Positions 44,001-50,337 of a DNA stretch of 64,000 nt are shown piece by piece. Origin of the DNA: an uncultured archaeon (GTDB taxonomy: Archaea; Altiarchaeota; Altiarchaeia; IMC4; SCGC-AAA252-I15). The translations under genes were made by a program, and so were the position numbers. The stretch covers positions 1 to 64,000 of the forward strand of contig CABMCB010000011.1 of NCBI GenBank assembly GCA_902384455.1, read 5' to 3'. Below the pieces are notes generated by a model, which saw nothing but the letters and a program-made list of their open reading frames with translations, was not told the DNA's origin and searched no databases. Every line of letters starts with the position of its first letter. Position 1 is the first letter of the stretch.

Positions 44001-44630
44001 ATGAACCTCACTTACCTTGGGCACGCGGGGTTCCGCCTCCAATCTAAAGAAGGAGTAATCTACTTCGACCCCTATCAGATAAAGAAACCCATAAACGACG
44101 GCGACATAGTGCTCGTAAGCCACAGCCACCGCGACCACTGCGACCCCGAAAGCATACTCGCAGTCTCAAAGAAAGACGCAGTCGTCATAGCGGCACAGAA
44201 CGCCGCAGCCAAAGCGTCAGCTCAACATTCTGTTTCCGAAGGAAACGCCCTTTCAGTAGGCGGCTTCAAGATAACCGCAGTCCCAGCATACAACACAAAC
44301 AAGCCATTTCACCCGCGCGGATTCGGCGTAGGATTCATAGTGGAAGCCGAAGGAAAACGCATATACCACGCAGGAGACACCGACGCCATAAACGAGATGA
44401 TGGAGTATGGCCCAGTCGACGTGGCGCTTCTTCCCGTGTCCGGAACATACGTGATGACGGCACCCGAGGCCGCAGAAGCCGCCAAGCTCGTCAAGGCGAA
44501 ACTCGCAATCCCAATGCACTATGGGGAAGTAATAGGAAGCAAAGACGACGCCGTATTCTTCAAAAAGCTCCTTGAAAGACTTAATGGGAAAGTAGTAATC
44601 CTTAATGTTGGGGAATCGCTTGACGCCTAG
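44001..44630 (+). CDS. MBL-fold metallo-hydrolase
   Basis: LGHAGF, SHSHRDH, YHAGDT, IPMHYG. Confidence 0.9.
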   Translation: MNLTYLGHAGFRLQSKEGVIYFDPYQIKKPINDGDIVLVSHSHRDHCDPESILAVSKKDAVVIAAQNAAAKASAQHSVSEGNALSVGGFKITAVPAYNTNKPFHPRGFGVGFIVEAEGKRIYHAGDTDAINEMMEYGPVDVALLPVSGTYVMTAPEAAEAAKLVKAKLAIPMHYGEVIGSKDDAVFFKKLLERLNGKVVILNVGESLDA

Positions 44631-44653
44631 TCGCTTGACGGGAAAAAACGATT

Positions 44654-46312
44654 TTATTTTGCGAGCGTAGCTTCTGATTCGGACCTGAATGTTTCCAGAA
44701 GCTGCCAGAACAAGAGGCGTGTTCTGTGGTTGTCCATTATGTCGTCTTTAGCGTGTTTTTTACCTTGCCGTCTGTTTTCGGCCGCTTCCTGCATTAGGCG
44801 GTGTACTGTGTGGACGCTTCCCATCCGGTATCCTTGAACGCCGTACAAAACCATGTCATTCACGTCTTGAGGGTCTGTGGGAATCTGCCCGTTAGGCTGA
44901 AGGTCGTTTGTGAAACCGTCCCTGTGGGCGTCAGCCAATACTTCAGAAACCCACCCTGCGCCTGCCGCAAAGTTTTGGATGGGATTGTCCCATTGGATTA
45001 GTATGTGACGGTTGGGGTCGAAGTTACGCCTCCTGCCCTCGGAGTCAGGCATCCCAGCTATGCGTCCCGCCCACGCTTGCGCGACAGTCTGTTCGCCTTC
45101 TCCCGTCTTAGCGGTTCCGAATGGGTAGGGAATCGTTACGAACGCGGTTTTGTCGTGCGTTTGTAATTGCTGGTCTTCACCTAACACCGGGATATACTGG
45201 GGCACCCTTATCAATGATTCTATTTCTTGGGCGTTTTGCGCTCGTGCTACAGACAAAACGACGTGGTCTAGCGGCAGGCTTATGAAACTGGTTGAGTTAG
45301 AGCCAATCTCCGTACGGACTTCATCAGGCAGACTCCCTCCCATATCAACCCACAAAGAAAGCAGGCGACGCTGACTTCTCCCGTCCCTCTCCCTTTCCGC
45401 CTGAGCGTAAGAACGCCCAAACCTCATCATGAAAGAAGACAGATGCTCCATTCCATACGCGGTATTGAACTCCATCAAACCTAAGTCGTATGTTCCATTG
45501 CTGTTTGGGCCCTGCGTAAGAAGGCTGTCCCAGCGGGACTCTATGAATCCCATTGAAAGCAGAAACAACGGGTGCATCTGAGTTAAGCCTCCGATAATAG
45601 CGACATCGTCAGACGAAACTTTTGCGTAAGGCGCCGTCTGGCTCACCCTAAGTTTTTGTTCTGCCGCCGTCAAATGGCGTTCGTTTCTTCCCCTCATAAT
45701 ATGCTGCCTAGTATCGGCCGTGGACTGACTGAATCGGGCGATTAATTCAGCGTCAGAAAGAGGACTTCCTTCAACGTGGATTCTGGCAGGGTCATGAGGC
45801 ATTGTGCCGTGAACCTTGCCTTGGGCGTCAATCATCTGCGCCCGACCCCCTAAGCTTTCAGTCAAATCGTAGACTGCAAATCCAGTCCACCGCCTTAAGC
45901 CTGCGTCAGCGCCGTATTTGGCCAAATCAACGTCAAAAGAGAACTCCCCAACCTTCCTTTGTTCCGCAGGCGTGGGAGTTTCATGAACAGGCTTCGGAGT
46001 AAGGAGGTCCTTCAAAAAATGCCCTGCCCGATAAATGCCATATCCTACTACACCCAATCCCGCAAGAGTAAGGCCTATCCGTACTGGAAGTTGCCAAAGG
46101 AACTCCCTGCGGCTCATAATATCTTCATCGTCACCTGCAACATCAACCCGCGCCCGCCTCCTCCTAAAACGCCGGCTGTCAACGATGGAGGGGTCGCTAA
46201 TCTCTCCTTGAGGTGGTCTTACGTCAGGCGGACGCTCATCCGAACCGCCGCCCCTAATCATACGTCCCCCACGAATCTCGAAGTCGTCGTCGGGAGGCTT
46301 ATTCTGAGACAT
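44654..46312 (-). CDS. Membrane-anchored protein with lytic transglycosylase (SLT/GH23-like) motifs
   Basis: SRREFL plus TM; FIESRW (putative catalytic Glu), NGTYDLGLMEFN, NPIQNFAAGAGW, QGYRMG. Confidence 0.6.
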   Translation of the reverse strand: MSQNKPPDDDFEIRGGRMIRGGGSDERPPDVRPPQGEISDPSIVDSRRFRRRRARVDVAGDDEDIMSRREFLWQLPVRIGLTLAGLGVVGYGIYRAGHFLKDLLTPKPVHETPTPAEQRKVGEFSFDVDLAKYGADAGLRRWTGFAVYDLTESLGGRAQMIDAQGKVHGTMPHDPARIHVEGSPLSDAELIARFSQSTADTRQHIMRGRNERHLTAAEQKLRVSQTAPYAKVSSDDVAIIGGLTQMHPLFLLSMGFIESRWDSLLTQGPNSNGTYDLGLMEFNTAYGMEHLSSFMMRFGRSYAQAERERDGRSQRRLLSLWVDMGGSLPDEVRTEIGSNSTSFISLPLDHVVLSVARAQNAQEIESLIRVPQYIPVLGEDQQLQTHDKTAFVTIPYPFGTAKTGEGEQTVAQAWAGRIAGMPDSEGRRRNFDPNRHILIQWDNPIQNFAAGAGWVSEVLADAHRDGFTNDLQPNGQIPTDPQDVNDMVLYGVQGYRMGSVHTVHRLMQEAAENRRQGKKHAKDDIMDNHRTRLLFWQLLETFRSESEATLAK

Positions 46313-46357
46313 TAAACACCGCCTTAATAACCGTGCAAACAAAGCAAAAAAAGTGAT

Positions 46358-49419: not shown

Positions 49420-50337
49420 ATGGCGTCCGAAACAAAGAAAGACAAACCAGAAGAAGGCAACGGCGAAACGCCAGCCGAAAAAGGAAAAAAGAAAAGCATA
49501 TACTTCTGGTTCGTAGTAGGCGTACTGATAGTCACAATCGGCTTTGGAACATACACCCTAATGAAACCCAAAACAACGGAAACCACAATAGCAGGCATAA
49601 AAATAATAGCCGAAACACCAATCACAGACCTGATAGGACAAAAAGACGTGTTCATAGGCCAACAAACAGACCCCTCCGCCCTAACATGCGCATTCGAAAT
49701 ATCCGCCGTAAGCAACATAGTCCGCCAAGGATACCGCATAGACATCGCCTACGGAGACACAGGAGTCTACATAAGAAAAGACGGCACAACAATCCGCGGC
49801 CGCACCCCAAACGACCTGCTTAACGCATGCCACGCCTTCCTGTGCGCAAGAGACCAAATTGAGTGCCCCGACAACTTCGACCGCATAAAGGCCATCGTTT
49901 ATTCTGCGCCCAAACTTAACGCAGTAGTAGACTCGAACCTCTCATCCAACGCAACCCGAAACTACCCTGAACTGATGGGCGTATTAGGTTACGTTCAAGC
50001 TCAGCGCGCAGACACCAACGGCGACGGAGTACTAAACCAAACGGAGATAAGCGAAAACACGGTGTACATATTCCCCTACCTCCAAGACGGAGAAATATGC
50101 AAACTACAGAACCTCAACAACCTCATAGAAAACCTCAACGCCAGCAACATAACACGGCCCTGCGCCGAAATACCCGGAATACACGTAGGATACGGAAAAA
50201 ACCGCATAGAACTCGGAGTAGACAAAATAACAATCACAGGCGACGACGCCAGCCTACACACCGCATCAGTCATAGTCCGCGACGCCATAGCACCAGAATG
50301 GATCAGAGTAGTCTACAACATGGAGAACACCACGTAG
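49420..50337 (+). CDS. Membrane-anchored extracellular protein with EF-hand-like loop
   Basis: Single N-terminal TM; DTNGDGVLNQTE Ca-binding-like loop; several Cys. Confidence 0.55.
   Translation: MASETKKDKPEEGNGETPAEKGKKKSIYFWFVVGVLIVTIGFGTYTLMKPKTTETTIAGIKIIAETPITDLIGQKDVFIGQQTDPSALTCAFEISAVSNIVRQGYRIDIAYGDTGVYIRKDGTTIRGRTPNDLLNACHAFLCARDQIECPDNFDRIKAIVYSAPKLNAVVDSNLSSNATRNYPELMGVLGYVQAQRADTNGDGVLNQTEISENTVYIFPYLQDGEICKLQNLNNLIENLNASNITRPCAEIPGIHVGYGKNRIELGVDKITITGDDASLHTASVIVRDAIAPEWIRVVYNMENTT

Follow-up and report, generated by a model that had tools for sequence, protein, structure and literature searches.

An orphan Altiarchaeota gene for a predicted membrane-anchored protein with a probable N-lobe of the EtgA/VirB1/TrbN type

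INTRODUCTION

EtgA, the rOrf3 product of the locus of enterocyte effacement (LEE) of attaching-effacing E. coli, has been characterized as a hybrid of a muramidase and a lytic transglycosylase (LT), in which E42 acts as the catalytic acid, D60, the equivalent of lysozyme D52, is important for activity, and the lower cleft is lined by N54, Q65, and N67, as described in PMC10880428. The protein (relatives IagB, IpgF, and YsaH; PDB entries 8URN and 4XP8) has 152 amino acids, is secreted, contains a conserved disulfide, is encoded in a type III secretion system (T3SS) island, and is activated by the rod protein EscI. EtgA was also the best sequence match of the protein analyzed here, which is the product of gene P0001 (44654..46312, minus strand; 552 codons plus stop, as obtained by calling and translation of the open reading frame [ORF]). 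The gene is located on a stretch of 64,000 nucleotides (positions 1 to 64,000 of contig CABMCB010000011.1, assembly GCA_902384455.1), referred to below as the window, from an uncultured archaeon of the Altiarchaeota. An original prediction, made from the letters of the window, had described the product as a membrane-tethered protein with a split soluble lytic transglycosylase (SLT) domain and as a possible tool to breach bacterial walls.

The VirB1 forms TraG (pIP501) and PrgK (pCF10) of monoderm bacteria are membrane anchored. VirB1 proteins of monoderm type IV secretion systems (T4SSs) are described as larger and multidomain proteins (PMC12102498). Extracellular archaeal proteins with SLT or glycoside hydrolase family 23 (GH23) domains have been reported for DPANN archaea (PMC8204110, 2021) and GH23 proteins for Woesearchaeota (PMC9723730), and these accounts read them as tools directed against the bacterial wall. 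The Pfam family PF01464 (SLT) was found here in 15 of 61 Altiarchaeota genomes, in 14 of them above the cutoff, and the host genome of P0001 is included in this count by a copy on contig C25. Together with the published DPANN proteins, this reduces the surprise that the original prediction had expressed at an SLT domain in an archaeon. The kind of protein is already known as archaeal SLT/GH23; what is new is a divergent form of the EtgA subtype in Altiarchaeota. A literature search, which did not extend to supplements, retrieved no paper linking Altiarchaeota with such enzymes.

RESULTS

Probable homology of residues 235 to 301 to the N-lobe of EtgA

Residues 235 to 301 (45410..45610, minus strand) would form a lysozyme-like N-lobe (GH23) and are, judged from profile and phmmer matches, very probably homologous to the N-lobe of the LTs EtgA, VirB1, and TrbN. 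A phmmer search of the PDB returned EtgA over residues 232 to 294 (8urn_A, E = 0.0021; 4xp8_A, E = 0.023), with a C-type lysozyme (5xuw, E = 1.8) as the next match. In NCBIfam, TrbN (NF010463) matched residues 270 to 287 with an E value of 0.0031, at 17.5 bits compared to a cutoff of 246. A profile named A1 was derived from EtgA of the E. coli Sakai LEE, for which 30 relatives were collected and 24 aligned. When A1 was compared with the protein by hhalign, 63 columns were aligned to residues 235 to 301 with a probability of 93.9% and an E value of 1.6e-7. A six-frame scan of the 61 Altiarchaeota genomes with A1 yielded four places in three genomes, the P0001 locus being among them (E = 7.4e-6); the two places in the host genome (2.41 Mb) were this locus and a canonical SLT on contig C25. 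The A1 profile also matched lysozymes, with E values of 2e-5 to 4e-4. By the hhalign and genome-scan values, the kinship to SLT proteins claimed by the original prediction is that of a genuine relative of the VirB1/EtgA/TrbN branch, which kept the catalytic Glu.

This Glu is E258 (codon 45539..45541, minus strand), the putative general acid, which aligns with E42 of EtgA; the pair E258-S259 was placed on the catalytic Glu of EtgA by phmmer, hhalign, and MAFFT alike. The further equivalents are N270 to N54, D276 to D60, E281 to Q65, and N283 to N67, and the spacing from E258 to N270 is 12 residues, identical to that between E42 and N54. E258, N270, N272, G273, Y275, D276, G278, M280, and N283 occupy, without gaps, columns that are invariant in the EtgA family. 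Four of the five positions of the lower-cleft set (E42, N54, D60, Q65, and N67) are identical in both proteins, and the fifth is Q65, which is replaced by E281; the alignment agrees here with the change of Q to E noted before. The upper-cleft set of EtgA comprises Y116, N117, G119, and Y133, for which the alignments gave no confident counterparts in the protein.

Four motifs had been proposed for the protein. LLSMGFIESRW (residues 251 to 261 of the 552-amino-acid protein) and NSNGTYDLGLMEFN (residues 270 to 283), motifs I and II, are conserved beyond chance. Motif III, with DNPIQNFAAGAGW (residues 442 to 454) as the candidate, was recovered weakly, at an E value of 0.034, and motif IV, VQGYRMG (residues 492 to 498), found no support. 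All quoted motifs, the Glu codon, and the ends of the ORF were located where the original prediction had placed them.

Possible continuation of the domain beyond the insert

A lineage-specific insert of about 140 residues (residues 302 to 438; 44999..45409, minus strand) separates the predicted beta-hairpin region of the N-lobe from the motif III candidate. The distance between N283 and N447 is 164 residues compared to 24 in EtgA, which gives an extra length of about 140 residues instead of the 150 initially estimated. The insert is followed by a putative C-lobe (residues 439 to 552; 44657..44998, minus strand), with NPIQNFAAGAGW (residues 443 to 454) as the motif III candidate and predicted helices thereafter.

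It is somewhat more probable than not, on the basis of a modeled structure, that the lysozyme-like fold is complete and that the domain resumes beyond the insert. When residues 300 to 552 were compared by hhalign with a profile of 12 Altiarchaeota SLT sequences, the stretch from 439 to 461 (QWDNPIQNFAAGAGW...) was aligned with motif III (E = 0.034), and the real score of 20.2 exceeded those of all 150 shuffled sequences (maximum, 20.1; median, 12.3). The ESM Atlas contains the exact protein with a model of its own (predicted TM-score [pTM], 0.62; mean predicted local distance difference test [pLDDT], 0.56). All five matches listed by the ESM Atlas structure search were SLT clusters with 134 to 183 aligned residues within residues 226 to 552, and these matches extended to residues 547 to 552. 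The structural TM-scores were 0.62 and 0.69 for SLT proteins of 179 and 160 amino acids, respectively, and the feature matches of 0.93 were phage SLT clusters. Because the N-lobe match covers about 65 residues, the C-terminal part of the protein must supply the rest of the ESM Atlas alignment. With respect to the split SLT domain of the original prediction, the first half is real and its resumption is plausible from the ESM Atlas matches and the weak motif III.

Predicted topology and other parts of the protein

The start codon at 46312 is an ATG with the motif GGCGGTG 4 nt upstream (46317..46323, minus strand), which resembles by its pattern alone a Shine-Dalgarno (SD) site. A TTATTAA motif (46324-46330) and a run of seven T residues (46346-46352) are positioned between the RtcB stop codon and this SD-like site. 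A candidate TTG start at 46342 is unlikely; the upstream sequence was inspected and contained no SD-like site.

Residues 1 to 70 (46103..46312, minus strand) form a charged tail with 15 K+R and 16 D+E, presumably in the cytoplasm. The sole candidate for a membrane span, a putative signal anchor, is at residues 71 to 94 (46031..46102, minus strand) in a Kyte-Doolittle plot, in which 19-residue windows above 1.2 were confined to residues 71 to 94 and to the predicted buried helix 237 to 257. The sequence SRREFL (residues 67 to 72) is located at the end of the tail, immediately ahead of the hydrophobic span. The assumption of a membrane-tethered protein agrees with this arrangement of a single span just behind an Arg-rich stretch. 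P0001 is predicted to encode a single-pass membrane protein, presumably in an N-in, C-out orientation, with about 455 residues outside and the short charged tail inside. The outer part would begin with residues 95 to 234 (45611..46030, minus strand), the fold of which was not matched by any library. The protein contains no Cys and two N-x-S/T sequons, N272 and N339.

SRREFL resembles the twin-arginine translocation (Tat) motif S/T-R-R-x-F-L-K, albeit starting at residue 67. TatC was not found in the host genome, which is 91.9% complete, and a functional Tat route is not supported. TatC was present in 25 of the 61 genomes of the phylum and in 14 of the 20 of the family.

Neither the insert (approximately residues 302 to 438) nor the N-terminal ectodomain (residues 95 to 234) had a match in Pfam, PHROGs, or the PDB. 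The best ESM Atlas feature score of the ectodomain was 0.76, with structural TM-scores of at most 0.40. The best PDB phmmer match over the C-terminal segment, the insert, and the N-terminal ectodomain was a nonsignificant beta-trefoil-like repeat (E = 0.94), and PADLOC, Pfam, and PHROGs returned nothing for the whole protein and its parts. An intein or mobile-element origin of the insert was considered and rejected; the protein contains no Cys, and no repeats bound the insert. The N-terminal tail had no significant relatives in the 61 Altiarchaeota genomes (best E = 0.0155). It (window 46115-46312, minus strand; …GEISDPSIVDSRRF…) resembles the N terminus of a 566-amino-acid protein from a related genus (G001 L002:1498-3198; …SEISDPQLIDRRRF…), which is otherwise unrelated to the P0001 product, with E values of 0.003 to 0.016 per genome. 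This resemblance could be due to chance or to a common short tail motif.

Searches for homologues of the protein

A word-indexed search scored 8000 candidates and returned the query itself alone. The region from residue 225 to 552, compared with shorter proteins, produced 399 candidates, none with an E value of 0.1 or below. A phmmer search against 1.84 billion representatives gave the query and one other protein, P0002, and no homologue; the P0002 match was discarded as spurious, being one of repeats with the membrane span. The genomes of 60 relatives contained no homologue, the single match being the weak one of the N-terminal tail in G001. As this is the only genome of its genus in the set, the orphan status holds at the genus level.

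Host and genomic context

P0001 appears to be a genuine gene that is fixed in the chromosome of a member of the Altiarchaeota. The adjoining RtcB is 64 to 67% identical to RtcB proteins from Altiarchaeota metagenome-assembled genomes (MAGs), and the neighborhood encodes PTH2, a KaiC-like ATPase, DHQS II, a cyclophilin, a metallo-beta-lactamase (MBL)-fold protein, RtcB, a spermidine-synthase-like membrane protein, and FEN1. The RtcB identity and the archaeal-type housekeeping neighbors PTH2, DHQS II, FEN1, and RtcB confirm the archaeal host of the original prediction and assign it to the Altiarchaeota. The gene is situated between those for RtcB and the MBL-fold protein, and its stop codon is 23 nt from that of the convergent MBL-fold gene. 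Among 58 RtcB loci compared, 13 shared at least one further neighbor with the window. In four of the loci (L009, L012, L017, and L056), the MBL gene begins 1 to 15 nt after RtcB; because it directly follows RtcB there, P0001 occupies a junction that is closed in these four relatives. A tblastn search with the protein gave no match at E < 1e-5 in the 58 RtcB loci, and the ORFs located in the equivalent gaps reached an E value of 0.44 at best.

The codon usage of P0001 ranked at the 40th percentile of 1033 stop-to-stop frames of at least 300 codons, a set that includes some nongenes. The G+C content of the 552-codon open frame is 52.7%, and the gene is present as a single copy in the genome. Its contig, C11, is compositionally typical, with a tetranucleotide distance of 0.0063 and rank 28 of 36. 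Two DNA sequencing runs of one study contained 5 to 7% of the sampled words, and two contigs obtained with them, 211 and 206 nt in length, were identical to 45643-45853 and 45801-46006 within the gene; neither of these two contigs spans the RtcB/P0001 or the P0001/MBL junction. None of the sequencing runs listed for the stretch is an RNA run.

Several features of the surroundings were observed in passing. The MBL-fold gene ends in TCGCTTGACG (44616-44625), and the same letters recur 15 nt further on, just past its stop codon, at 44631-44640; this repeat at the edge of P0001 could have been left by the rearrangement that brought P0001 to this site. The AT skew changed between −0.46 and +0.37 in 2-kb windows across positions 1-64000, irrespective of gene strand. 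RtcB was matched in two pieces in L018, L019, L026, L028, L030, L038, L041, and L047; the break is near residue 92/93 in seven of these loci, where the pieces are 23 to about 1500 nt apart, and near residue 390 in L047. These breaks look like inteins or other insertions at a fixed site in RtcB of several archaea and bacteria. A membrane-anchored protein of 305 amino acids with no Pfam family (window 49420-50337, plus strand) is encoded beside FEN1 in 10 Altiarchaeota loci, with 30 to 40% identity.

Wall-hydrolase and murein genes in the host genome and the phylum

The host bin contains three canonical wall-hydrolase domains: an SLT on contig C25, an Amidase_2 on C28, and a CHAP on C100. All three reside in phage-type blocks, with genes for helicase, ligase, HNH nuclease, QueD/QueE/FolE, tail fibers, and endolysin, and C25 and C100 are among the most compositionally deviant contigs (ranks 7 and 3 of 36). 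With these copies being of phage type, P0001 is the sole gene resembling a wall hydrolase that was seen among housekeeping genes of the host genome. With regard to synthesis, no murein or pseudomurein set was seen in the host genome beyond one match of the Mur ligase type (Mur_ligase_M), a family that also matched in wall-less control archaea.

The C25 block (G000, L063:3649-16223) encodes an SNF2-type helicase, an ATP-dependent ligase, HNH nucleases, QueD/QueE/GTP cyclohydrolase, a DpdA-like transglycosylase, and ParB, besides the canonical SLT protein of 194 amino acids (PF01464, E = 1.5e-14). The G+C content of C25 is 0.544 versus 0.505, and the keto-skew patches of the genome are absent from it. 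The block represents a mis-binned bacteriophage or else a virus whose host is undefined. The only Amidase_2 and CHAP domains of the genome, on C28 (L092:5699-6460) and C100 (L093:5275-7339), are encoded beside tail-fiber, endolysin, and helicase genes. Since all three canonical domains are on phage-like contigs, counts of wall hydrolases in archaeal MAGs need a check for phage contigs.

Other Altiarchaeota carry chromosomal SLT proteins. Those of G015 (350 amino acids, L076:3630-4679), G023 (558 amino acids, L077:3722-5395), and G004 (518 amino acids, L075:4200-5753), which make up a small family, possess an RRxFL/transmembrane (TM) anchor and an SLT domain split by 95 to 110 residues at the site that is also interrupted in P0001, between GxMQ and motif III; Pfam detected one half of each. 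The genes in G023, G015, and G004 adjoin those for archaeal-type ThrRS, RpiA, prefoldin, LeuA, and adenylosuccinate lyase, and the G004 protein has an additional Amidase_2 (N-acetylmuramoyl-L-alanine amidase) domain. G010 encodes a TM-anchored SLT protein of 490 amino acids (L003:4818-6290, minus strand), 1.7 kb from RtcB in a neighborhood of FEN1, the 305-amino-acid protein, and RtcB. It has a threefold-repeated cytoplasmic N-terminal region, and no counterpart of this gene or its flanking genes was found in the host genome of P0001. A Cys-rich 985-amino-acid protein of G021 (L088:2904-5861, minus strand) is composed of repeats of about 45 residues (CTTGWKCKDSNNKGYQSSDCSWSS...) and a terminal, lysozyme-like SLT_3 domain (PF18896, E = 1e-15).

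DISCUSSION

The P0001 product may be a single-pass membrane protein of an Altiarchaeota archaeon that displays a much-diverged GH23 domain of the EtgA/VirB1/TrbN type on the outer face of the membrane. This account is put forward tentatively and is nearly as probable as not. According to it, the chain would return, after passing through the insert, to a complete fold by way of motif III at residues 443 to 454 and the C-terminal helices. The tethered domain would bind, and probably cleave, a beta-1,4-linked N-acetylmuramic acid-N-acetylglucosamine (MurNAc-GlcNAc) glycan. Since neither a murein nor a pseudomurein pathway was seen in the archaeon itself, the target would be the murein of bacteria in contact with the cell. 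The domain may have been acquired in an ancient horizontal transfer from a bacterial, plasmid, or phage source and diverged afterwards. Catalytic activity on murein, taken by itself, is conceivable but doubtful. The most far-reaching version, an active surface-tethered muramidase of the EtgA/VirB1 type with a new module of about 140 residues, which breaches bacteria alone or together with a T4SS-like apparatus, is improbable.

Several results weigh against this account. Neither the whole protein nor any of four subsegments had a Pfam match at E ≤ 10 (the gathering score of PF01464 is 21.3 bits), and a six-frame genome scan with PF01464 (E ≤ 1) found C25 and C92 and missed the P0001 locus; a domain interrupted by so large an insert can leave a half-domain match that Pfam does not register. 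The GLMQ motif appears as G278-L-M-E281, with the invariant Gln exchanged for Glu, and the conserved disulfide of the EtgA family is impossible in a protein that contains no Cys. In the C-terminal part, A1 selected the same stretch as the Altiarchaeota SLT profile (residues 439 to 461) as its second alignment, though at an E value of only 0.65 to 0.76. A hidden Markov model (HMM) of EtgA residues 82 to 140 scored 1740 shuffled sequences and did not report the real segment among 5001 sequences, and a phmmer search of the PDB with residues 430 to 552 gave nothing. MAFFT (alignment A2) positioned N447, N474, and Y490 on N91, N117, and Y133 of EtgA, with spacings of 27 and 16 compared to 26 and 16. 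This placement was rejected as evidence, because three or more of the five invariant columns were also matched by 32 of 150 shuffled tails. A spacing pattern, reached by 49 of 20000 shuffles, was not counted, since it had been defined post hoc with the alignment already seen. VQGYRMG, which the original prediction had equated with aaYNaG, was not placed on the YNxG motif by any alignment; MAFFT used N474 and Y490 for N117 and Y133 of EtgA instead, no better than chance, and YNxG could not be placed in the protein. The AlphaFold2 model of residues 225 to 552, made without an alignment, was unusable (pLDDT, 33.8), which leaves a language-model structure of middling quality as the sole evidence for the fold. 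Purifying selection is not demonstrable, because no homologue was present in any collection searched. Some Altiarchaeota have two membranes (PMC4500143), and a protein anchored in the inner membrane of such a cell might not reach bacteria.

Part of these results would also fit a relic or repurposed domain, which has lost catalysis and whose ectodomain binds a glycan in adhesion or sensing or is purely structural. A C-lobe that sequence statistics do not detect, the replaced Q65, the unplaced YNxG, the large insert, and an orphan protein with fast-diverged flanking regions all agree with such a loss of function. On the other hand, the catalytic Glu and the hairpin Asp, the two residues of greatest catalytic importance in EtgA and lysozyme, are retained at exact spacing together with three Asn residues of the groove, which is not expected after long neutral decay, and a relic or repurposed domain is therefore regarded as unlikely, albeit as a serious alternative. 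That the resemblance arose by chance, or that the open frame is nonfunctional, would account for the silence of Pfam, the orphan status, and the fact that no RNA run is listed for the stretch. It is very improbable in view of independent significant matches in NCBIfam, PDB phmmer, hhalign, and the genome scan and of a frame that stays open over 552 codons (52.7% G+C), follows the native codon usage, and is preceded by an SD-like site.

Two other explanations assign the domain a different partner or target. As a VirB1-like helper of a T4SS-like apparatus of the archaeon, the protein would open either a bacterial partner's wall or one layer of the archaeon's own envelope at the site of assembly of the apparatus. 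Its nearest relatives, EtgA and TrbN, are secretion helpers that belong to a T3SS and a T4SS, respectively; the same genome contains a TrbL/VirB6-like gene on C92 (E = 7.3e-6) and a weak VirB4-like match on C94 (E = 7.1e-4); and monoderm VirB1 proteins are likewise larger and multidomain according to PMC12102498. P0001, however, is located on a different contig among housekeeping genes, and five SLT-bearing genomes of family f5 yielded one weak TrbL match, on another contig. TrbL-like matches occurred in 11 of 20 family relatives (over the cutoff in 3 of 21 genomes), and the protein occurred in none of 60 relatives, which means that it is not a core part of a T4SS. This role is quite improbable. 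An enzyme acting during growth or division on a glycan of the own envelope, a nonmurein polymer or the glycans of glycoproteins between the membranes, has similarly little probability. The lysozyme superfamily includes enzymes that act on chitin-type GlcNAc polymers, and the protein is anchored in the cell's own membrane; the double membrane of Altiarchaeum with its undefined outer components (PMC4500143) would provide room for such a function. A housekeeping role nevertheless predicts orthologues, of which there were none in the genomes of the 60 relatives, and the host genome showed no murein-type synthesis set.

If the domain is active, the Altiarchaeota join the archaea that carry hydrolases of the bacterial wall. 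Archaeal peptidoglycan hydrolases that kill bacteria have been demonstrated for other enzymes, and this antagonism recently gained experimental footing (PMC12352652). In the nearly pure biofilms of Altiarchaeota, the suppression of bacteria is described as unexplained (PMC4500143), and the breaching of bacterial walls, if true, would be one molecular answer. The P0001 locus is a single gene from one MAG. The count for the phylum, 15 of 61 genomes with several membrane-anchored proteins in a housekeeping context, is probably more useful than this one orphan.

Compared with the known systems, the protein shares with EtgA the E-S end of the catalytic helix and the hairpin N-x-N-G-T-Y-D-x-G-x-M-x-x-N with the lysozyme-like Asp. 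It differs from EtgA by its length of 552 amino acids, the absence of Cys, a membrane anchor rather than a cleaved signal, the insert of about 140 residues, E281 in place of Gln65, the unplaced YNxG, and the location of its gene among archaeal housekeeping genes. The weak TrbN match, an SLT-type domain at the membrane, and T4SS-like genes in the genome are reminiscent of VirB1 and TrbN of T4SSs, unlike which P0001 is unlinked to the T4SS-like genes and its product has no CHAP or M23 partner domain. The SLT proteins of DPANN archaea, from Woese- and Pacearchaeota (including fam00969, a family of large extracellular murein-like LT proteins), are canonical, recognized by standard annotation, and up to 3000 amino acids long; by these descriptions, they are set apart from a Pfam-invisible protein of the EtgA subtype in the Altiarchaeota.

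The SLT proteins of G015, G023, G004, and G010 come from the same phylum as the P0001 product and have in common with it an RRxFL-type or TM anchor and the housekeeping context, and those of G015, G023, and G004 also the site of the insert within the SLT domain. They carry the GxMQ and AYxGG motifs of ordinary SLTs, unlike the P0001 product, and phmmer (--max) detected no pairwise similarity between it and the Altiarchaeota SLT proteins. A profile of the G015, G023, and G004 proteins matched it at residues 205 to 304 only (E = 0.025), and a kinship with these split-SLT proteins beyond the N-lobe was rejected as not detectable. The C-type lysozymes (hen egg-white, GH22), finally, resemble the protein in the pattern of a Glu followed by the hairpin N-G-x-x-D-Y-G-x-x-Q-x-N, the match itself being nonsignificant; lysozyme C is stabilized by four disulfides and lacks an insert, and the P0001 product shows the reverse.

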